Below, in pieces: positions 26,814-37,813 of a DNA stretch of 64,000 nt. The notes below the pieces were generated by a model, which did no database searches, had not been told where the DNA came from, and saw only the letters and a list, made by a program, of their open reading frames with translations. Position 1 is the stretch's first letter; every line of letters starts with the position of its first letter. Origin of the DNA: Candidatus Marinacidobacterium sp. (GTDB taxonomy: Bacteria > Acidobacteriota > Vicinamibacteria > Marinacidobacterales > Marinacidobacteraceae); the NCBI GenBank assembly GCA_965220965.1, contig OZ244852.1, positions 416,001 through 480,000 on the forward strand, given 5' to 3'. Made by a program: the position numbers and the translations under genes.

Positions 26814-26891
<78 letters not shown>

Positions 26892-28063: not shown

Positions 28064-28090
28064 ACGGCCAAGCGGCGGCCCGTCCCCGGG

Positions 28091-28162
28091 AGCCGGCGAG
28101 TGGATTTGAACCACCGACCTGCTGATTACGAATCAGCTGCTCTGCCCCTGAGCTACACCGGC
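28091..28162 (-). tRNA. tRNA-Thr (CGU), CCA not encoded
   Basis: Minus strand GCCGGTG TAGCTCAG...CTGAT-TCGTA-ATCAG...GGTTCAAATCC...CGCCGGC T. Confidence 0.95.
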
Positions 28163-28446: not shown

Positions 28447-28770
28447 ATGACGAAACCCGCCACGAGGCCTGGCTGGCTTCGGGCGTGGTCCCCTGCTGGC
28501 GGGCCGTCGCCTCTTGCAGCGGCGCTGGCGGCTTGTGTTCTGCTCGCGACCGGATGCCTCGCCGTCTCTCACGGTCATGACGAAGAACCGGGCGGTGGGA
28601 GCAGTCAGGACTGCGTAACGTGCGCCCTCGGGCATCACACGCTCGCAGGTTCGACCGGCGCCGCGCTCCCCGGTCCGAACGCCACGGCCGTCGCGGTCTC
28701 CGAGGACGGCGGGCCGGCGCGCCCTGACGCCCGGCTGGCGGTCCATGCCGCCCGCGGCCCCCCCGCGTAA
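28447..28770 (+). CDS. DUF2946/CruR-like metal-responsive leader protein with RAPP-type arrest motif
   Basis: Hydrophobic segment, SHGHD, CVTC..HH, low-complexity spacer, terminal ARGPPA-stop; lies directly upstream of a TonB-dependent receptor. Confidence 0.8.
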   Translation: MTKPATRPGWLRAWSPAGGPSPLAAALAACVLLATGCLAVSHGHDEEPGGGSSQDCVTCALGHHTLAGSTGAALPGPNATAVAVSEDGGPARPDARLAVHAARGPPA

Positions 28771-28893
28771 CAACCCCCCAAACGCCATCGGCGCCACCGC
28801 TCCGTCAGCGGGGCGGACCGCGCGCCGTCCCGTCGCGTGCGTCGGGAGTTTTCCGGTCGCCGGAATTCGGCGGCCGTCGGGAGGTTTTGTTCC

Positions 28894-31338
28894 GTGTCTG
28901 TCTGTCGTTCCCTTCTACCTGCGGTCCTCGTTCTGAGCGCCGCCACAGCCCTGAGTCCGAGTCTCGCCCGCGGGACGCCACAGGAGGGCTCCATCCATGG
29001 AACTGTCGTGGCCGCCGAGAGCGGAGCGCCGGTTCCGTCCGCGCTCGTCTTTCTCGACGGTACGACCCTCTCGGCCATCACCGCCGCCGATGGATCGTTC
29101 GTCATCGACGCTGCGCCGTCCGGCGAACATCTGCTGATCGTCCGGGAAGCGGCGTTCCGGGAGCTGGCGTGGCCGGTCACCGTGGTCGCCGGCCAGCCAG
29201 TGAGACTCGACCTGAGTCTCAGCATCCTGCAGTTCGAAGAGAGCGTCGTGGTGACCGCGACGCAGACGGAACGGGCGGTGACCGAGGTGGCGGCCAGCGT
29301 CACGATTCTCGACGCGGACGCGATCGCCGCTTCGTCGGCGCGCAATCTCCAGGATCTGCTTCGGCAGACGCCGGCGCTCGATCTGGCGGAGACCTCGGGA
29401 ATGGCCGCCCGCGCCAACTCGTCGCTCATCATGCGCGGGGTCCCGGGCACGAAGCGGGCGCTGTTCCTGGTCGACGGGATGCCTGCCAACGATCTGGGCC
29501 ACGGAAGTCTCGCCGGGCTGAGCCTCGTTCCGGTCGAATCGGTCGAGCGCGCCGAGGTGGTCCGCGGCCCCTTTTCGAGTCTCTACGGGGCGAACGCCTT
29601 TTCCGGCGCCATCAACGTCATCACCCGACCTGGCGAAGGGCCTCCAGCCGCCGACTTCTTCGCCAGCGGCGGCTCGGCCGGCTACTACCAGTTCGGCGCT
29701 TCGGTGCGTGGCGCATCGGGACCTGTCGCCTACACCTTCACTGCGGATCGCCGCCAGATCGACAACGTCTACAACCGCGACACCCGCATGGTTCCGGTGA
29801 TCGGCGAGGACGGCGGCATTCTGCAGCGGGAGGTCCCGCTTACGAATGTCGGGTACGAGGACACCCGGCTCAACGGTCGGCTCGACATCGACATGTCGGA
29901 CGCGTGGCGGCTGACCCTGCTGCCGAGGATCACCCGCTACGAGACGGGGCTCGATCTGTCGTCACGACTGCCGGCGCCGGTCGAGGAATCCAAGCAGGAC
30001 ACCGCCTTCAACCTCGGCGGCGTCCTCAGCTATGGCGGGGAGGGGGCGCTTACGGCCCGGCTGCGGGCGAGCTACCGCTACTCGACGCAGAGCCTCTTCC
30101 AGGAGAACTTCACGCTTGCCCCGACGCGCCAGACGATCATCGTGGATCCACCGGGTCCCGCCATCAGTGAGTCGGTGACCCGAGGCGTGTTCCCCTTTGC
30201 GGCGCTCACCGGGCAGGAAACCGATTTCTTCACTCTCCTCCTCGAGCCGCAGTTCACGTGGACGCCGAACGCCGACCACACGGTCGTTTTCGGCGCCAGC
30301 TATACCCGCGACCATGGCGCTTTCGGCGAGAGCAGGATCGCGGACGCCTCGAATCTGGTCGGCTCGGACGCCACTCTCGCCGGGATCGCCCGGGGCATCC
30401 AGGCGGGCATGGCGGCGGGCGGAGCGCCCAACCCGAGCGTCACGTTTGTGCGCGACCCGGCCATTGGCGAGATCTTTCCCCTCTCGGACGGGCAGGAGGA
30501 GCAGTTCGACATCTTCTCGGCCTACGTTCAGGACGAGTGGGTCGTGGCCGACCGGCTGCGGTTCGTCCCGGGCCTTCGCTTCGACCACCACGCTTCCTTC
30601 GGGTCCGTCGCTTCTCCCAAGGTGGCGCTGCTGTACTCGCTGGCGCCGACCACGCGGGTGCGCAGCTCCGTCGGGCGCGCCTTTCGGGCTCCGAGTCTCT
30701 TCGAACTGTTCGGCAACGTGGTCTTCCACGGGCCCATTCCCGGCCTGCCGAACGCCGATCTGAAGCCCGAGTACATCAGTTCGTTCGACGCCGGGATCCA
30801 GCACGAGGTCAGCCGCGCCTTGCGGGCCGAAGTGAACGTCTTCTACAACGACATGACGGACCTCATCCAGCTCGTCATTTCGCCGGAGCGCGACCACTTC
30901 GACTGGGTCAACGTGGCCGAGGCGCGCTCCACCGGTCTCGAACTGGTGGCGAATGGTGACGCCGCGTCGTGGTTGGGCTACTACGCCAACTACGCGTACA
31001 CCGACAGCGAGGATCGGGCCACCGGCAACGCGCTGGCCCTCGTGCCGCGTCACAAGGCCAACGCCGGACTCCGGTTGCGGGGCGACGTCGGGTCATGGCG
31101 TTTCACCGGTTCCCTCGACCAGCGCTGGGTTGGCGCGCGAACGCAGAGCTCGCAGGGCGTTCCGGTGGGTCTTGACGCCTACGGACGCACTGATCTCGCC
31201 GTCTACCTGCACCCCACCAGTCGCCTCCGCCTCGGGCTGCAGGTGCTCAACCTCATGAACGCCGACTACCAGGAGACGGCCGCCAGTCCCACGCTCGGCC
31301 GGCTGATCTCGGTAGGCCTGACGGTCACTCCGTTCTAG
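28894..31338 (+). CDS. TonB-dependent receptor with N-terminal carboxypeptidase-regulatory-like domain
   Basis: Signal peptide, ESVVVTAT TonB box, plug (MRG, LVDG, ERAEVVRGPFSSLYG, GAINVIT), FRAP, PNADLKPE, NLMN, terminal F. GTG 28894 follows GGGAGG. Confidence 0.93.
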   Translation: MSVCRSLLPAVLVLSAATALSPSLARGTPQEGSIHGTVVAAESGAPVPSALVFLDGTTLSAITAADGSFVIDAAPSGEHLLIVREAAFRELAWPVTVVAGQPVRLDLSLSILQFEESVVVTATQTERAVTEVAASVTILDADAIAASSARNLQDLLRQTPALDLAETSGMAARANSSLIMRGVPGTKRALFLVDGMPANDLGHGSLAGLSLVPVESVERAEVVRGPFSSLYGANAFSGAINVITRPGEGPPAADFFASGGSAGYYQFGASVRGASGPVAYTFTADRRQIDNVYNRDTRMVPVIGEDGGILQREVPLTNVGYEDTRLNGRLDIDMSDAWRLTLLPRITRYETGLDLSSRLPAPVEESKQDTAFNLGGVLSYGGEGALTARLRASYRYSTQSLFQENFTLAPTRQTIIVDPPGPAISESVTRGVFPFAALTGQETDFFTLLLEPQFTWTPNADHTVVFGASYTRDHGAFGESRIADASNLVGSDATLAGIARGIQAGMAAGGAPNPSVTFVRDPAIGEIFPLSDGQEEQFDIFSAYVQDEWVVADRLRFVPGLRFDHHASFGSVASPKVALLYSLAPTTRVRSSVGRAFRAPSLFELFGNVVFHGPIPGLPNADLKPEYISSFDAGIQHEVSRALRAEVNVFYNDMTDLIQLVISPERDHFDWVNVAEARSTGLELVANGDAASWLGYYANYAYTDSEDRATGNALALVPRHKANAGLRLRGDVGSWRFTGSLDQRWVGARTQSSQGVPVGLDAYGRTDLAVYLHPTSRLRLGLQVLNLMNADYQETAASPTLGRLISVGLTVTPF

Positions 31339-31351
31339 AGGAGGGTCCCCC

Positions 31352-34300
31352 ATGAAGAACAGCAGCAAACCGGCCCCACGCGGGCCGGTCCGGGCGTTCG
31401 TCGCCGGGCTCTGGTCCCGGCGGCGACGGATTGCGGCCGCCACGCTCGCGGTGGCCACGCTCTGGATCGGGTTCTCGCAGTATGAGCGTCACCTTGCGGT
31501 GACGCGGGTGGCGTTCGTGAATTTTCCGGGCTTCCAGCTTGCCCGCATCGAGCGCGCGCGCCAGAGCGACGCGGTCCGGATCGAGTCGCTGGACCTCGCG
31601 GCGCTCGACCGGGCGGCCGACTACCCGGTCGTCTTTGTGTTCGGGCGCGGCCTGCAGCTCGACGAGACGCAGCTCGGCCACCTCCGCGAAGCGGGCCGCC
31701 GCGGGGCGCGGCTCTTCGTGCAGGGCGCCACGAACCCTGCGCTCGATGTCACGAACCTGCGCGGTCCGCAGCTCGACGCCACCAACGCATACCTCGAGTT
31801 CGGAGGGGCGGAGAACTACGCCCGGCTCCTCAACTTCTCGCGAGTCGAACTCGACGGCAAGACGCTTCGGTCGGATCCGGTGCAGCCTCCCGTCGAACTC
31901 TCGATGGATGTGCTGTTTCATCTGGATGATGACCTGACGTTCGAGACCGTCGATGCGTTCGACGCCTGGTACGCGGGCGAGGGCCTCGTGAAGAGCGCAA
32001 GGCCGACGATCGCGCTGCTCACGAGCGTCCCCGGTCCGTTCAACGCAAACCGGGATCACGTCGATGCGTTCATCCGGTCGCTCGAAGGCCGGGACTGGAA
32101 TGTCTATCCGATCGCGAGCACCGAGAAGCGGCTCGATTTCCTGCGGGAGATCGATCCCGACCTCGTGGTGCTCATGCCGCACGGGCGGCTGACGCTCGGT
32201 CGCGCCGACGAGGCGATCGCGTGGCTCCAGGAGCGGAATATCCCGATGCTCACGCCCCTGTCCGTGTTCGAGAACCACGAGGAGTGGGTGAGCGACCAGC
32301 AGGGCATGGCTGGCTCGATGCTCACGATGAGCGTTGTCCTGCCGGAACTCGACGGCGGGATCGCGCCCTACGCGGTTGCGGCGCAGTTCACCGATGCGGA
32401 TGGCTATGAGATTTTCGACGCGCTGCCGACCCGGCTGGAAACGTTCACCGATCTGGTCGAGCGGTGGCTCGCTCTCAAGGAGAAGCCCAACCGCGAAAAG
32501 CGTGTCGCCATCTACTACTACAAGGGACCCGGAAAGAACGCCATGACCGCCGGCGGCATGGAGGTGGCGCCCAGCCTGCTGAACCTGCTGCGCTCGCTTC
32601 GGGATGCCGGCTACGCCGTCGAGGGGCTTCCCGAGACCGATGACGAGTTCCAGGATCTCATCCAGAGGAAGGGACCGGTCCTCGGACCGTATGCCCGCGG
32701 CCTGTTCGAGGAGTATGTGGCCAACGGCGATCCGGCGCTCGTATCCGCCGGCGACTACGCGGAGTGGATGGCCGAGGATCTCGAGCCCGCCATGCGGGAA
32801 GCGGTCGTACAACAGTACGGCCCGGCGCCGGGCGAGTACATGACGGTCGGCGAAGGTGACGCGACCGCGCTCGCGGTTGCGCGCGTGCGGTTCGGCAACG
32901 TCGTCATCCTGCCGCAGCCGCTGCCGGGGGTCGGCCAGGACACCTTCCGTCTGGTGCACGGCGCGCAAAAGGCGCCGCCGCACCCCTATGTCGCCTCCTA
33001 TCTGTGGACCCGCAACGCGTTCGAGGCGGACGCGGTCATGCACTTCGGCACCCACGGCAGCCTCGAGTTCACTCCCTGGAAGCAGATCGCGCTCTCGGCC
33101 TTCGACTGGGCGGACGCGCTCGTTGGCGGCCTCCCCCACGTCTATGTCTACGTGATGAGCAACGTCGGCGAGGGGATCATCGCCAAGCGGCGGTCCTACG
33201 CGGCCACGGTGACGCACCTGACGCCCCCGTTCATGGAAGGCGGGCTCCACGAAGGTCTGCGGCCGCTGCAGGACGCGCTGGACCGGTATCGCAACGCCGC
33301 CGACGGCCCGGTCCGGATGGAGCACAGAAAGACTATCCAGCGCCTGGCCACCGGGGCGAACCTCCACGTGGATCTCGGTCTGGATGCGGGCGCGGAGTGG
33401 TCGGCGGACGAGATGTTCCGCCTGAGCAACCACATCGAGACCATCGAGGGAGAAAAGGTCACGCAGGGTCTCTACACCCTCGGCGGCCCCTTCAGCGTGG
33501 ACGAAGTCAACTCCACCGCGGAGCTCATGGCCCTCGACCCGATCGCCTACGCGATGGCGCGCATCGACACCGTGCGGGGGGACGTCAAGGCCTCCGATCT
33601 CGATGATGAGGTCTTCTTCGAGCGTCGCTACCGGCGGCGGGCGCGCAGCGCCTATGCGCAACGGGTCGCCGGCGAGGACGCCGGGCTCGTGCTCGCCGGG
33701 CTGGTCTCGGACTCCGACCTCGGTCGGGCGCACGCCTGGCGCGAGGCGACGCGGCGGCCCTCGGACGACGACATCATCCGTGGGTTTATTTCCATGGGCG
33801 CAGGCTCGCGCGGGCGACCGGAGACATCCGCGTCCCGGGCTCTGGCTGGTGAACTCGAGGACCTCGTGGCGCGCATCATGCCTCACCCGCGCCGCGTGGA
33901 GTTTGTCGAGCGGCTGCGTTCCGAGCAGGAGTTCGCCCGGACATCGCAGATTCTGGATCCTGCGCAACTCGAGCGGGCGAAGACGATTGCGCTCGTCGTT
34001 CCGCCCATGGCGGAGGCGCTCGAGATCGCCCAGATTCCGGATGTCTACGCCCTTCTGGAGGCGATGCAGGATGCGGAGACCCGCGAGCGGGTGTTCACCC
34101 TGCTGGAGGATCCCGGGCTCGTGGACCGGGTGGAGGCCGAGAAGCGGCGGTTGGCCGCGGAACATCGGGCCCGCGCCCTCGACCCGGCGCATCTGGATGC
34201 GCTCGAGCAGACCTGGCGCGACGACTGGGCCGGCGGACTCGCAAAGGTTTCCAGCGACGGGATCGAGCGCGCGATGACGGCGGTGGCCTTCTACCGGGAG

Positions 34301-36145
34301 CAGCGCGCCACGCTGCGCGAGGAGCTCGACGGCATCGGGACCCCCGCGGCGGAAGGAGTGCTCAGGATCCTCGCGGATGCGGCGTTCGACACCCGTCTTG
34401 ACGCTGCGGTCGCCGCCGCCGAGGCCGAACTCGACGCCCGCGCCGAACGGGACGCCGAGTTCGCCCGCGCGGTGCTGACGCTGGAAGCCAGCGTCACCTC
34501 CATTGATCTGCATCGGGAGGGCCTTCGCGACAGCTCGGGCCTCGAGCTCGAGGGTGTGACGCGAGCCCTCGCCGGCGGCTATGTCGAGCCGTCTTCCGGG
34601 GGTGATCCCATCGGCAACCCGGACGCCATCCCGACCGGACGCAACCTCTTCTCGATCGACGCGGAGAAGACCCCCTCCCCCGAGGCGTGGAAGGTCGGAC
34701 GACAGCTCGCGGAGACGCTCCTCGAAGAGCACCGGGGCAGGCGTGACGCGTATCCCAGGAAGGTCGCGTTCACGCTCTGGCCGAGTGACTTCATCAGCAC
34801 CGAGGGGGCCACGATTGGCCAGATCTTCTACCTGCTCGGCGTGGAGCCGGTGTGGGACGCGTTCGGCCGCGTCGCCGACCTTCGCCTCATGTCCGCGAAC
34901 GACCTCGGGCGGCCTCGTATCGACGTGGTCGTCCAGACCGCCGGGCAGCTTCGCGACCTCGCCGCGTCGCGCCTCGCGCTCATCAACCGCGCCGTCGCCA
35001 TGGCCGCCGAGGCGCGCGACGTGGAGGCGCACGCCAACTTCGTCCAGGAAGGACGCCTCCGCGCCGAGGAAGTGATGAAGGAGAAGGGGCTCTCGCCCGC
35101 TGACGCGCGACGCTATTCGACGTTGCGAGTGTTCGGCGGCGTCAATGGCAACTACGGGACCGCGATCATGGGAATGGTGGAGCGGGGAGACCGCTGGGAG
35201 GAGGAAACCGAGGTTGCGAGCCAGTATCTGCGGAACATGGGCGCGGTCTACGACGAAGGAGAGCTCTGGAGCTTCTATGCCGACGGCGTGTTCGAAGCGG
35301 CGCTCGCGGATACCGAGGTTGTCGTGCAGCCGCGCGAGAGCCACACCTGGGGGGCGCTGAGCCTCGACCACGTCTACGAGTTCATGGGCGGGTTGAGCAT
35401 GGCCGTCCGCCACGTGACGGGTCGGGACGCTGATGCTTACTTCAACGATTTCCGCAATGCGCAGCGGCCGCGCGTAACCGATCTGAACGAGACCGTCTGG
35501 ACCGAAGCGCGATCCACGCTCCTGAACCCCGCCTACATCGGAGCGATGCAGGAGGGCGGCGCGTCATCGGCCGAGACGTTTGCCGAAACGTTCCGCAACA
35601 CGTACGGCTGGAACGTGATGAAGCCGGCCGCGATCGACGACGCGCTCTGGGACGAGCTTCACGAGGTCTATGTCGACGACCGCTACGACCTCGGCGTCGA
35701 GGACTTCTTCCGTCGCGAGAACCCCTACGCCCTTCAGGAAATGACGGCCGTGATGCTCGAAACCGTCCGAAAGGGACTCTGGGAGGCTTCTCCCCGACAG
35801 GTCGCCACCCTGGCGGAGCTCCATGTCCGCCTGGTCAACGAGTTCGAGGCGGGCTGCAGCGGGTTTGTCTGTGACAACGCCGCCCTCACGACGTTCATCG
35901 CCGACCAGGCTCCCGCCGAACTCGCCAGCGCCTATCGCGGCGAGCTTCAGCGGGCGCTGACGTCGAGCGTCGAGCTGACGGACGCCAGCGTGGTTCTGGC
36001 GGAGCGGGAAGCCGAGTCGCGGCCAGCCAGCGCCAATACGGATCCGATCGGTCCGTCGCGGGCGGCCTGGCTGGGCCTGGCCGCTGTTGCGGCCCTGTTC
36101 GGCCTCGCGCTCCTTGCGCTCCGGAGGCGGCGGCGCGCGCCGTGA
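31352..36145 (+). CDS. CobN/magnesium-chelatase H family protein, HmuS-like, membrane anchored at both ends
   Basis: PELDG, PPHPYVASYLW, HFGTHGSLEFTP, GEGIIAKRR, GGDP..NPDAIPTGRN, RPRIDV, DHVYEFMGG, LLNP, NPYALQ; N-terminal TM and C-terminal TM followed by RRRRR. Confidence 0.92.
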   Translation: MKNSSKPAPRGPVRAFVAGLWSRRRRIAAATLAVATLWIGFSQYERHLAVTRVAFVNFPGFQLARIERARQSDAVRIESLDLAALDRAADYPVVFVFGRGLQLDETQLGHLREAGRRGARLFVQGATNPALDVTNLRGPQLDATNAYLEFGGAENYARLLNFSRVELDGKTLRSDPVQPPVELSMDVLFHLDDDLTFETVDAFDAWYAGEGLVKSARPTIALLTSVPGPFNANRDHVDAFIRSLEGRDWNVYPIASTEKRLDFLREIDPDLVVLMPHGRLTLGRADEAIAWLQERNIPMLTPLSVFENHEEWVSDQQGMAGSMLTMSVVLPELDGGIAPYAVAAQFTDADGYEIFDALPTRLETFTDLVERWLALKEKPNREKRVAIYYYKGPGKNAMTAGGMEVAPSLLNLLRSLRDAGYAVEGLPETDDEFQDLIQRKGPVLGPYARGLFEEYVANGDPALVSAGDYAEWMAEDLEPAMREAVVQQYGPAPGEYMTVGEGDATALAVARVRFGNVVILPQPLPGVGQDTFRLVHGAQKAPPHPYVASYLWTRNAFEADAVMHFGTHGSLEFTPWKQIALSAFDWADALVGGLPHVYVYVMSNVGEGIIAKRRSYAATVTHLTPPFMEGGLHEGLRPLQDALDRYRNAADGPVRMEHRKTIQRLATGANLHVDLGLDAGAEWSADEMFRLSNHIETIEGEKVTQGLYTLGGPFSVDEVNSTAELMALDPIAYAMARIDTVRGDVKASDLDDEVFFERRYRRRARSAYAQRVAGEDAGLVLAGLVSDSDLGRAHAWREATRRPSDDDIIRGFISMGAGSRGRPETSASRALAGELEDLVARIMPHPRRVEFVERLRSEQEFARTSQILDPAQLERAKTIALVVPPMAEALEIAQIPDVYALLEAMQDAETRERVFTLLEDPGLVDRVEAEKRRLAAEHRARALDPAHLDALEQTWRDDWAGGLAKVSSDGIERAMTAVAFYREQRATLREELDGIGTPAAEGVLRILADAAFDTRLDAAVAAAEAELDARAERDAEFARAVLTLEASVTSIDLHREGLRDSSGLELEGVTRALAGGYVEPSSGGDPIGNPDAIPTGRNLFSIDAEKTPSPEAWKVGRQLAETLLEEHRGRRDAYPRKVAFTLWPSDFISTEGATIGQIFYLLGVEPVWDAFGRVADLRLMSANDLGRPRIDVVVQTAGQLRDLAASRLALINRAVAMAAEARDVEAHANFVQEGRLRAEEVMKEKGLSPADARRYSTLRVFGGVNGNYGTAIMGMVERGDRWEEETEVASQYLRNMGAVYDEGELWSFYADGVFEAALADTEVVVQPRESHTWGALSLDHVYEFMGGLSMAVRHVTGRDADAYFNDFRNAQRPRVTDLNETVWTEARSTLLNPAYIGAMQEGGASSAETFAETFRNTYGWNVMKPAAIDDALWDELHEVYVDDRYDLGVEDFFRRENPYALQEMTAVMLETVRKGLWEASPRQVATLAELHVRLVNEFEAGCSGFVCDNAALTTFIADQAPAELASAYRGELQRALTSSVELTDASVVLAEREAESRPASANTDPIGPSRAAWLGLAAVAALFGLALLALRRRRRAP

Positions 36146-36157
36146 AGCAGGGGCGCC

Positions 36158-36838
36158 ATGGAGGCAGTACTCGACATCGTCGCGGGGACCGGTGTCGTCC
36201 TCTTCCTCCTCGCGACGGCGTTCATCGGGTCGTTCCGGGGTCGGTTGCTGGCCTTCACGCTCGTCGCCGCGGGCGCCTGGTTTCTCCATCCGTTCGCGGT
36301 CCGGCAGAGTCTCTCCTCCCTGATCGGCGGACTGGACGCCGGCGGGCTGCAGGCGCTCGCCGCCGTCCTGACGCTCGACGGCGTGCTTGGCTCGTTCGGG
36401 GCCGCCCGCCTTCTGCGGGTCCGGGATGGCGCGCCCATCCCCCGTCTTCGCGGACTGGCGGCCCACTACATTGGCCTGTCGCCAGTCCCGGCGCTCCTCT
36501 ACCTCGAGATGAAGGCCTTCGACGCATCGTCGTGGTCCTTTGGAACGACCGCTCTGGCGCTCTGCCTGACCATCGTCGCCGCGGGCCTGGCCGGGAGCGA
36601 GTTGCTTCGAAGGGTTCTGCCGGACCGGGATGTGCGGATCGAGCTGCGACTGCTGGTGCACGTCGGTCAGGTTGCGCTGGCCGCCGCGCTCACGGCGTTC
36701 GCCCTCGGGGGCGCCGCGAGGAGCAACTCGATGGCGCCGGAAGCGGGCCCTCACGCCGTTGTCGCCGGAGCGGTCGTGGGCGGGATCCTGATCGGCGCCT
36801 GGATCCATCGGCGGCGCCAGCGCCGCATGGCGGGCTGA
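36158..36838 (+). CDS. Polytopic membrane protein (HmuT-like by position)
   Basis: About 7 hydrophobic segments; lies between the CobN-like and ExbB-like genes. Confidence 0.7.
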   Translation: MEAVLDIVAGTGVVLFLLATAFIGSFRGRLLAFTLVAAGAWFLHPFAVRQSLSSLIGGLDAGGLQALAAVLTLDGVLGSFGAARLLRVRDGAPIPRLRGLAAHYIGLSPVPALLYLEMKAFDASSWSFGTTALALCLTIVAAGLAGSELLRRVLPDRDVRIELRLLVHVGQVALAAALTAFALGGAARSNSMAPEAGPHAVVAGAVVGGILIGAWIHRRRQRRMAG

Positions 36839-36842
36839 GCTC

Positions 36843-37460
36843 ATGGAACTTCTGACCCGCGCGCTCTACGTGCTCTCGACGGGCCTGCTGGTCCCGGTCA
36901 TTGTCATTCTGCTCGTCCTCTTCGTCCGGGCGCTGCTCGTCGCCGGACAGACCTATGGCGCCTGGCTTTCGCGGTTCCGGTTCCGGTCCGCGCTGCAGCC
37001 ACTCCTCGCCCGACTCGACAGCGACAATGTGGGGACGCTTCTGCAGGAGGCCGAACTGCCGCCGGAACCACGGTGGAAGCCGGCGCTCGGGCGACTCATC
37101 GAACACGGAGCGTCGGCGGCTCAACGCGAGAAAGCGCTCGCCGACTTCGAGTCGGGTTGCGAGACCGACCTGGCGCCGGCGAAGTCCATGGCCCGGCTCG
37201 GCCCGATGCTCGGCCTCATGGGAACGCTCATACCGATGGGACCGGCGCTCGTGGGTCTGGCCGCCGGCGACATCGCGGCGATGGCCGAGAACCTGCAGGT
37301 GGCGTTCTCGACGACGGTCGTGGGACTGTTCGTGGGCGCCGTCGGTTACGCCGTTCAGCAGGCCAGGCAACGCTGGCAGGCCGAGGCGCTCAGCAATCTC
37401 GAGTTCGTGAGCGAGCTCCTCGGCGAAAGCGCATCCCGACCGAAGGGAGGACACGAATGA
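36843..37460 (+). CDS. MotA/TolQ/ExbB proton channel family protein (HmuU-like)
   Basis: LGPMLGLMGTLIPMGPALVGL, AENLQVAFSTTVVGL. Confidence 0.9.
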   Translation: MELLTRALYVLSTGLLVPVIVILLVLFVRALLVAGQTYGAWLSRFRFRSALQPLLARLDSDNVGTLLQEAELPPEPRWKPALGRLIEHGASAAQREKALADFESGCETDLAPAKSMARLGPMLGLMGTLIPMGPALVGLAAGDIAAMAENLQVAFSTTVVGLFVGAVGYAVQQARQRWQAEALSNLEFVSELLGESASRPKGGHE

Positions 37461-37813
37461 CATCCAGACGACGGCGGCGCAGAATGGGCGGCGGGCTTCA
37501 CGACGACAGTGATCCCCTCGCCGCCATCGCCAATCTGTTCGATGTGGCCATGGTCTTCGCCGTGGCGCTCATGGTCGCGATGGTCAGTCGCTGGCAGTTG
37601 ACCGAGTTCCTCACCCGTGAGGACTTCACGATGGTCAAGAATCCGGGGACAGCGGAGATGGAGATCATCACGCAGGAGGACGGTGAGATCACCCGTTACC
37701 GCGCTGAGGACGCGGCGGACGCTGCGGGTCGGCGCGGCCGCCGGGTCGGCGTCGCCTACCAGCTCGAGAGCGGCGAGATCATTTACGTGCCGGAAGCTCC
37801 TGGCGCCGAGTAG
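37457..37813 (+). CDS. DUF2149 protein (HmuV-like)
   Basis: DPLAAIANLFDVAMVFAVALM, VKNPG, G.AYQLESGEIIYVPE; ATGA overlap with upstream gene, GGGAGG RBS. Confidence 0.9.
   Translation: MTSRRRRRRMGGGLHDDSDPLAAIANLFDVAMVFAVALMVAMVSRWQLTEFLTREDFTMVKNPGTAEMEIITQEDGEITRYRAEDAADAAGRRGRRVGVAYQLESGEIIYVPEAPGAE

Follow-up and report, generated by a model that had tools for sequence, protein, structure and literature searches.

The window analysed here, a stretch of 64,000 nucleotides (nt) from the genome of Candidatus Marinacidobacterium sp. (contig OZ244852.1, positions 416,001 to 480,000), carries a five-gene operon homologous to the hmuRSTUV genes of Bacteroidota. Directly ahead of it lies a 107-amino-acid (aa) open reading frame (ORF), which is likely to be a leader peptide that senses a metal as a nascent chain, stalls its ribosome at a C-terminal Arg-Gly-Pro-Pro (RGPP) motif, and thereby unmasks the ribosome-binding site of the first operon gene, a TonB-dependent receptor. 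That the ORF is a real, conserved peptide of the translated type is well supported by comparison of orthologous loci, in which the same small frame recurs at the head of nearly all intact Vicinamibacteria operons, with a Cys-x-x-Cys (CxxC) pair held at a near-constant distance from the terminal motif. The leader class itself has already been published, and the apparently undescribed parts are its link to an Hmu-like operon and the distinct clade to which the CobN-family enzyme of that operon belongs.

Gene layout and conservation of the leader

The host genome has a size of 3.25 Mb and a G+C content of 72%; its named relatives assign it to the acidobacterial class Vicinamibacteria. An earlier note on this DNA, made from the sequence alone, had proposed a leader followed by five closely packed genes, and ORF calls and Pfam matches confirmed both the six-gene layout and its coordinates (Table 1). 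From the receptor onward, the genes are spaced by 13 nt, 12 nt, and 4 nt and then overlap by 4 nt. The receptor most likely starts at the GTG at 28894, nine bases behind the GGGAGG at 28879-28884, rather than at 28837, and the intergenic region between leader and receptor therefore measures 123 nt.

Table 1. Features of the leader and operon in the window (window positions), and the further leaders of the same genome with the genes that follow them (G000 is the window genome).
Feature	Position	Strand	Evidence or remark
Operon with leader, six genes	28447-37813	+	leader, TonB receptor, CobN-family, membrane protein, MotA/ExbB, DUF2149
Leader ORF, 107 aa, divergent DUF2946/CruR-type, ending ...ARGPPA-stop	28447..28770	+	translation; orthologues before same operon
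Putative metal-binding stretch, residues 42-64, HGHDEE...DCVTCALGHH	28570..28638	+	CxxC at 28612-28623
RGPP arrest-type motif, residues 103-106	28753..28764	+	43 residues after CxxC, one residue (Ala) before stop
Structured intergenic region, 123 nt	28771..28893	+	C-rich anti-Shine-Dalgarno-like head 28771-28782; predicted pairing with receptor Shine-Dalgarno GGGAGG 28879-28884
TonB-dependent receptor, HmuR-like, CarboxypepD_reg + Plug + barrel	28894..31338	+	Pfam; open frame from 28837
HmuS-like CobN-family protein, 1597 aa, "Arg79/His254" clade, N- and C-terminal hydrophobic segments	31352..36145	+	CobN-Mg_chel PF02514, E 6e-295
HmuT-like membrane protein, 226 aa	36158..36838	+	no Pfam match; HHalign homology
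HmuU-like MotA/ExbB-family protein, 205 aa	36843..37460	+	PF01618, E 9.6e-11
HmuV-like DUF2149 protein, 118 aa	37457..37813	+	PF09919, E 1.2e-29; sole DUF2149 copy in genome
Four further CxxC-x(42-44)-R[AG]PP leaders (L037-L040)	G000:C1:116389-116826, 1397428-1397793, 2758501-2758779, 2304444-2304911		
Paralogue cargo: siderophore-type TonB receptor			TIGR01783, 240 bits, above cut-off
Paralogue cargo: receptor, then amidohydrolase			best receptor model ZnuD, 208 bits, far below cut-off
Paralogue cargo: ABC ATPase and two DUF3526 permeases			
Paralogue cargo: 390-aa protein			no Pfam match

An ORF of 107 aa is by itself uninformative in DNA of 72% G+C, and frames of similar length overlap it on both strands; the small ORF was accepted as real on comparative evidence (its motifs, its length ruler, and its position), not on the window sequence alone. 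The window copy combines a hydrophobic N-terminal segment with HGH at residues 42-44, CVTC at 56-59, HH at 63-64, and the terminal RGPP at 103-106. Among 41 related genomes, DUF2149, the family of the last operon gene, occurs in three, namely the window genome (G000), G015, and G018, with G033 among the 38 negatives. G015 and G018 carry the same five-gene operon, and in each a small ORF directly ahead of it ends in ARAPPA or PRAPPS before the stop codon. A single-protein search of the 41 genomes with the leader gave weak and mixed matches, mostly noise in G+C-rich frames, which were not used for any count.

A scan seeded with DUF2149, with one genome per species, kept 80 loci of 374 relatives, comprising 39 from Acidobacteriota and 41 from other groups, mostly Bacteroidota. 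Fifteen of the 39 acidobacterial loci have no visible operon head, seven because they lie on short contigs and eight because they are cut by the 10-kb flank or have a second CobN gene ahead. The 24 loci with an operon head consist of 22 intact operons with the leader, one remnant with the leader (L076), and one operon without it (L069). The earlier note had named lack of conservation ahead of orthologous operons as one outcome that would speak against a functional leader, and the result is the opposite: the leader stands directly ahead of the operon in 22 of the 23 intact, evaluable Vicinamibacteria loci and also in two Cyclobacteriaceae, Algoriphagus jejuensis (L091) and a metagenome-assembled genome (L098), the only two of the 41 non-acidobacterial loci to have it. 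It is absent from three sister Cytophagales loci (L102, L103, L111) and from the Bacteroidales loci.

An alignment of 25 leaders shows six invariant residues (M1, C56, C59, R103, P105, and P106) and four almost invariant ones (R7, H44, D46, and G104), the second position of the RGPP motif being Gly or Ala throughout. Judged by eye, each of the 25 has a basic N-terminus and, next to it, a hydrophobic stretch of about 18-20 residues. The orthologues are otherwise only 20-46% identical to the window copy. The spacer between CxxC and R[GA]PP is free in sequence and fixed in length, with 43 residues in 20 and 44 in two of the acidobacterial hmu-linked loci, and over the 34 residues around the CxxC the hmu-linked leaders contain on average 5.2 His, 5.5 Asp plus Glu, and 2.9 Cys. 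The same design recurs in the low-G+C Cyclobacteriaceae, so that motifs and spacer are kept in 24 loci beyond the window and in two phyla. An in-frame length ruler held across such different base compositions points to a constraint on a translated product rather than on RNA or DNA.

Several candidates that matched the leader pattern alone were rejected. Those in L041, L049, L062, L063, L070, and L077 are an out-of-frame stretch of one conserved gene, and the single matches in L044 (on the minus strand) and L069 (with a spacing of 52) are not leaders; all of the rejected matches lie away from operon heads and lack the His-rich signal-peptide design.

Family assignment and the arrest-type motif

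The DUF2946 (PF11162) family, to which CruR of Bordetella belongs, was defined by a CXXC motif, a C-terminal RAPP motif, and 45 +/-1-2 residues between them (Roy 2022, PMC9426467). The window leader has the CXXC, a C-terminal RAPP-type motif, and a spacing of 43, and it is the first gene before a TonB receptor across a long intergenic region. Of the 25 orthologous leaders, 23 match DUF2946 at E<=1, the best at 3.5e-5. A profile built from them retrieved 192 proteins at E<=1e-3, 16 of these at E<=1e-10, among 1.84 billion representatives. Within the best 150 of the 192, the arrangement CxxC-x(41-49)-R[AGS]PP-x(1-9)-end is found in 140. Spacings of 43, 44 (the mode), and 45 occur in 18, 75, and 38 proteins, and the motifs RGPP, RAPP, and RSPP in 81, 55, and four. 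DUF2946 is matched at E<=0.01 by 59 of the 150, and the nearest relative, P0009, exceeds the Pfam cut-off of 23.7 with 25.1 bits. Because orthologues and library relatives match DUF2946 and share its motifs and ruler, the leader appears to be a peripheral, His-rich, and divergent branch of DUF2946/CruR, which bears out its earlier description as a DUF2946-like ORF.

Among the 12 permutations of RGPP, RGPP itself is the least frequent in the 1422 likely-coding ORFs of the genome, occurring seven times against 18-45 times for the others (median 41), an approximately 6-fold depletion. A 2025 study reports that no tetrapeptide is more strongly under-represented in ten bacterial groups and that, of the RAPP-like motifs, it gives the most stable arrest, resistant to elongation factor P (EF-P); upstream ORFs with RGPP or RAPP and signal sequences ahead of TonB receptors are described there as widespread in Gram-negative bacteria (PMC12992588). 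CruR itself was shown to arrest in vitro, with one Pro codon in the P site and the other in the A site (PMC12992588).

The HmuS-like enzyme and other operon products

The five genes downstream of the leader are homologous to hmuRSTUV gene for gene, given the Pfam, HmuS, and HmuT matches, and the likeness suggested earlier from gene order thus holds for each of them. Compared with solved structures, the CobN-family protein scores 1230 bits (E 0) against the heme dechelatase HmuS (PDB 9d26_A), 375 bits against ChlH, and 334 bits against CobN. The 226-aa membrane protein aligns with the proteins at the HmuT position in Bacteroidales (HHalign 98.7%, E 2.7e-16, 198 columns). Among NCBIfam models, the receptor scores best with TonB-hemin (192 bits) and TonB-B12 (182 bits), in each case below the cut-off. 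No match to HmuY (PF14064) was found by Pfam among the six products. The hmuYRSTUV operons of Bacteroides thetaiotaomicron and Porphyromonas gingivalis have the same R-S-T-U-V order and likewise a membrane-anchored enzyme with the same catalytic motifs and His-254; the window operon differs in lacking HmuY, whose place at the operon head is taken by the leader, and in two features of the enzyme (PMC12583661).

These features were identified through the definition of HmuS, which includes Met-79 as axial heme ligand and His-254 in a His-Gly-Arg motif, both at the head/neck site, as well as a methionine-rich insertion (21 Met in 120 residues in the B. thetaiotaomicron protein), in addition to the body motifs HFG(T/A)HG (His-538) and LSLDHxxEFMGG (His-1209, Glu-1212) (Nath 2025, PMC12583661). 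The window enzyme keeps the body motifs as HFGTHG (His568) and LSLDHVYEFMGG (His1340, Glu1343) and the His-254 equivalent as His277 in MPHGRL. Met-79 is replaced by Arg99 at the aligned position, and the domain IV insertion, of about 270 residues at the same place, holds only 5-6 Met and is not Met-rich. Arg at the Met-79 position together with His at the His-254 position is common to 30 of 30 Acidobacteriota and four Cytophagales sequences, whereas the Bacteroidales proteins split into a Met/His type (nine, the true HmuS pattern) and an Arg/Met type (15, plus three variants). In a FastTree phylogeny of 35 sequences and 1310 columns, the Arg/His proteins formed one clade with a support of 1.0, the only clade with leaders. 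The phylogeny suggests that the enzyme represents a branch distinct from HmuS, shared by Acidobacteriota and Cytophagales.

The second Bacteroidales type, which has Arg in place of Met-79 and Met in place of His-254, differs from bona fide HmuS, measures about 1300 aa, and forms its own clade (support 1.0); the TonB receptor gene of its loci often lies downstream of DUF2149 (L080-L092, L095, L101, L104-L106, L114, L119). The Cytophagales operons (L091, L098, L102, L103, L111) encode a TonB receptor, a 356-aa HmuY-domain protein (PF14064, E 3.5e-21), an Arg/His-type CobN-like protein, and the T, U, and V products. Upstream of the operon in L102 and L103, a CobW_C gene (COG0523-type metallochaperone) ends at close distance, in the place of the leader.

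Four families of the window operon, namely TonB receptor, CobN-like protein, ExbB/D-family protein, and DUF2149, also make up PA1922-PA1925 of Pseudomonas aeruginosa (PMC4542158, PMC9431628). That operon belongs to the Zur regulon, has a Zur box, and is induced up to 147-fold on zinc depletion (PMC4542158, PMC8456098, PMC9431628). It differs from the window operon in being controlled at transcription, and the available descriptions list neither a leader nor an HmuT-like gene for it.

The operon may also be an ordinary heme and iron system, in which the enzyme takes iron from heme and the leader senses iron or provides a cross-check by copper. The high score to HmuS, the retention of His568, His1340, Glu1343, and the His-254 equivalent, the TonB-hemin model as the best (though sub-threshold) match of the receptor, and the HmuY-domain gene in the sister Cytophagales operons all agree with it. 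However, two HmuS-defining features (PMC12583661) are missing, with Met-79 replaced by Arg in every acidobacterial sequence, and the enzyme falls in its own clade. Furthermore, copper is the metal to which the leaders so far characterised in this class respond, and the P. aeruginosa operon of the same content responds to zinc. We regard the heme reading as rather unlikely.

Intergenic RNA and proposed mechanism

Arrest of translation, a response to metal and its direction, masking of the Shine-Dalgarno (SD) sequence, the substrate, and the metal are what we infer for this locus, and together they would work as follows. The leader would be translated and exported or anchored by its N-terminal segment, and its His/Asp-rich C-x-x-C stretch would bind a transition metal before synthesis of the chain is complete. 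The ribosome may then arrest at R-G-P-P, holding the first and second Pro codons in its P and A sites, respectively, at a fixed distance of 43 residues after the metal site. The putative stall site lies 12 nt before a C-rich anti-SD element that begins right after the leader stop, and because of this position, a stalled ribosome would be expected to melt the long-range helix that hides the receptor ribosome-binding site, allowing the five-gene operon to be expressed; a ribosome with Pro105 in its P site reaches about 15 nt downstream and thus into the anti-SD head. Binding of the metal would alter the duration of the arrest. Because the cargo is an uptake operon, the logic of CruR, in which the presence of metal relieves the arrest and switches the operon off, seems the more probable. 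The operon would import a tetrapyrrole-like metal complex through the receptor, with the ExbB-like and DUF2149 proteins supplying the energy, and its metal would be removed by the membrane-anchored HmuS-like enzyme. Analogy suggests copper from CruR and CutF, zinc from PA1922-PA1925, and iron from Hmu. It has been argued that some DUF2946-family members sense other metals (Ozturk, PMC9973294).

The predicted RNA structures agree with part of this scheme. In each of 20 of 20 Vicinamibacterales intergenic regions, the minimum free energy (MFE) fold is closed by a helix between the nucleotides after the leader stop and the receptor SD region, with two or three hairpins inside it. In most loci, the head sequence is CACCUCC and that of the SD region GGAGGUG; the window has AACAACCCCCC and GGGAGGUUUUGUU, respectively, at these places. 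By inspection, CCUCC lies <=12 nt from the leader stop in 16 of the 20 loci, and in register, 84% of the cells of the helix are paired, compared with 48-62% when the strands are slid. The window region is predicted to be almost fully paired (MFE -63.9 kcal/mol over 132 nt). A stem-loop that masks the SD is the demonstrated mechanism of CutF in cutF-cutO (PMC9973294). Support for the anti-SD helix is nevertheless limited, conserved complementarity being its sole support after covariation was sought in three ways without success.

A series of results weighs against the proposed sensor. For the RNA, covariation of the helix was no better than in shuffles, of which 146/500 and 376/500 reach the observed values, and RNAalifold predicted the inner hairpins without the closing helix. 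Shuffled C-rich heads still pair with the SD, duplexes across loci are nearly as stable as cognate ones (-12.6 vs -14.1 kcal/mol), and the SD is still predicted to be 47-91% paired when the first 13 nt are blocked. G015 and G018, the two nearest relatives with the operon, show no pairing between head and SD. CruR acts via Rho and not by SD masking (PMC9426467). For the leader, the G+C content by codon position (0.77/0.69/0.75) gives no coding signal, a word-index search for homologues with the single leader yielded 87 candidates, none of them significant, and the window copy itself misses the strict Pfam cut-off for DUF2946, reaching 11.9 bits (E 0.4; profile positions 47-117 of 117) against 23.7. 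The leader is also missing from the orthologous operon L069 and from 3/5 Cytophagales operons.

The RNA results bear on a second version of the switch, in which the same leader works as CruR does: the stalled ribosome blocks Rho, release of the arrest leads to premature termination before the receptor, and the helix is incidental to G+C-rich RNA. CruR, a member of the family shown to control a TonB receptor, acts through Rho across an intergenic region of 162 nt, compared with 123 nt in the window (PMC9426467). The first nucleotides after the leader stop are C-rich, and both the lack of covariation and the lack of head-to-SD pairing in G015 and G018 are what this version would lead one to expect. 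On the other side, heavily paired RNA is a poor substrate for Rho loading at rut sites, and loading is therefore disfavoured in a region predicted to be almost fully paired. The distance from the stall site to the anti-SD element is, moreover, fixed, and CCUCC keeps close to the stop in most loci. Control through Rho is the less likely of the two but a serious alternative, and SD masking by the anti-SD helix is the version adopted here.

The small ORF could instead encode a stable exported accessory that binds metal or ligand, such as a periplasmic chaperone or an HmuY-like lipoprotein, and have no regulatory role. Its hydrophobic N-terminal segment, its His/Cys-rich motifs, a lipobox-like string (LLATGC) in the window copy, and its position, which is that of HmuY in Bacteroidales operons (PMC12583661), could be read in this way. 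The lipoprotein reading was rejected since the Cys of that string is not conserved, the orthologues having LLPAGF or LLSAGF. Unlike in a folded domain, only length is conserved between the motifs, and the C-terminus is the strongly avoided RGPP. The absence of a HmuY match and the presence of the leader plus a separate HmuY-domain protein in Cytophagales operons also argue against an accessory, and CruR and CutF are undetectable as proteins in vivo (PMC9426467, PMC9973294), which makes this explanation very unlikely. A chance frame in G+C-rich DNA, with an RNA or DNA element conserved in its stead, would fit the missing codon-position signal and the overlapping ORFs of similar length on both strands, but it is hardly credible when frame, stop position, and motifs are kept from 72% G+C Vicinamibacteria to low-G+C Cyclobacteriaceae while nucleotide and spacer sequences diverge, and when 140 of the best 150 of 192 library relatives share the architecture.

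Other leaders of this type in the genome and tandem leaders

A search of the window genome with the pattern C..C-x(38-50)-R[AG]PP-x(0-6)-stop found five loci, while the other 13-wide spacing bins gave 5, 1, 0, 0, 2, and 0, the 5 belonging to the bin 0-12. All five leaders share a hydrophobic N-terminus, and about 12 residues ahead of the CxxC each carries an H-x-H. The four paralogues lie 99-183 nt from their cargo genes (Table 1), and one shares with the window leader a spacing of 43.

Two different RGPP leaders occur in tandem before an Hmu-like operon in L052:306-1132, L074:172-1263, and L073:1021-3142. The first of each pair is of an "HxHxAD...DCDACHFRH" type with a spacing of 44, and it is followed by the usual type with a spacing of 43. 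The tandem leaders of L073 are separated by a beta-propeller (SGL/NHL) gene, and the second of them is followed directly by the CobN-like gene, without an intervening receptor. Apparent deletion remnants were also seen. L076:7798-10321 contains leaders, a short N-terminal receptor fragment, and then DUF2149 directly, and the library protein P0027 joins the N-terminal half of a leader to the C-terminal part of a DUF2149 protein.

Comparison with known systems and significance

The earlier note had compared the leader to CruR and CutF as CxxC leaders with a RAPP-type motif, which is right for CruR; CutF has CxxxC and PPP according to the papers that describe it. CruR (Bp2923 of Bordetella pertussis, located before bfrG) resembles the window leader as a small first gene with an N-terminal export signal (putative in the window leader), CXXC, and a C-terminal R-x-P-P, followed by a TonB receptor, and its fixed ruler measures 45 residues against 43 in the window (PMC9426467). 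The two differ in the motif, which is RGPP with one trailing residue in the window and RAPP with three in CruR, in the context of the CxxC, which is His/Asp-rich in the window leader, unlike that of CruR, and in the cargo, which is a TonB-dependent transporter plus PepSY_TM for CruR and an Hmu-like operon here (PMC9426467). The hosts also differ, since the surveyed DUF2946 members come mostly from Proteobacteria (PMC9426467), whereas the window belongs to an acidobacterium. At the RNA level, the termination by Rho in CruR contrasts with the predicted resemblance of the window to SD masking.

In this last respect, the proposed device is closer to CutF of Rhodobacter capsulatus (cutFOG), in which a nascent, exported metal-sensor peptide stalls the ribosome and opens an anti-SD stem-loop (PMC9973294, bioRxiv 10.1101/2025.02.05.636593). 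CutF differs in its CxxxC and its EF-P-sensitive PPP, and copper induces stalling that turns on a detoxifying oxidase; the opposite logic would be expected at the window, because its cargo is an uptake operon. The upstream ORFs with RAPP or RGPP (PMC12992588) appear to be the same class as the window leader, with a localisation signal and a C-terminal RGPP or RAPP before TonB receptors.

The pairing of such a leader with an Hmu-like operon had been thought undescribed, and this stands for the link itself, for which no description was found in the literature, supplementary gene-context tables lying outside the search. It does not extend to RAPP/RGPP leaders before TonB receptors or to a metal-regulated operon of the PA1922-PA1925 type, both of which are already published. 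In the main texts, as distinct from supplementary tables, "cobn" is absent from PMC9426467, CobN and chelatase are absent from PMC9973294 and PMC12992588, and heme is absent from PMC12992588. The sole paper found to contain both DUF2946 and DUF2149 has them at different loci (PMC9431628).

Few metal-sensing arrest peptides have been worked out, namely CruR and CutF, both proteobacterial and linked to copper, and the present locus would extend the device to Acidobacteriota and Cytophagales. A single genome would hold five such leaders before five different cargoes, one of them tied to a dechelatase-type operon whose enzyme lacks heme-specific features of HmuS. The locus may therefore offer a handle on the role of the many members of the chelatase superfamily that are neither HmuS, CobN, nor ChlH, a question raised by Nath 2025 (PMC12583661), and on the purpose of the zinc-regulated operon of receptor, CobN-like, and DUF2149 genes in Pseudomonas. 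If the leader reports only copper and the enzyme removes only iron from heme, the locus would be an ordinary extension of two known systems. A more far-reaching proposal, which we put forward as speculation with a low chance of being correct, is that the Arg79/His254 clade of soil Vicinamibacteria and Cytophagales does not remove iron from heme but serves in salvage, taking Zn, Cu, Co, or Ni out of metallo-tetrapyrroles present in the environment (for instance chlorophyll derivatives, corrinoids, or F430-like compounds), the operon being switched by a nascent-chain sensor of the same metal; this would explain PA1922-PA1925 as well. The leader (L091:121-450) and operon are present in a cultured strain, A. 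jejuensis JCM 16112 (L091), which makes experimental tests feasible.

Surroundings of the operon

No riboswitch, for cobalamin or otherwise, was detected before the operon by Rfam, whose sole matches in the window are two tRNAs. No sigma-70 promoter or metal-regulator box was recognisable in the 284 nt upstream of the leader, no conserved Fur- or Zur-like operator appeared in the alignment of orthologous upstream regions, and a promoter and terminator scan of the locus gave nothing convincing. A terminator-like hairpin at 28866-28881, followed by UUUUGUU (to 28890), overlaps the receptor SD and the spacer between SD and start; it is found in the window only and is not kept in orthologues. The two tRNAs are a tRNA-Thr(CGT) at 28089-28162 (-), which ends 284 nt before the leader, and a tRNA-Met at 26814-26891 (+).

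Several orthologous loci have a beta-propeller gene whose end is 50-60 nt upstream of the leader. Beta-propeller genes of the PQQ_2/BamB-like type recur beside the operons, in L044:12-5625 and L075:15-8478, upstream of the leader in L065, L067, L071, and L072, and upstream of the receptor in L069. L044 and L075 also carry a second CobN-like gene upstream of the operon.

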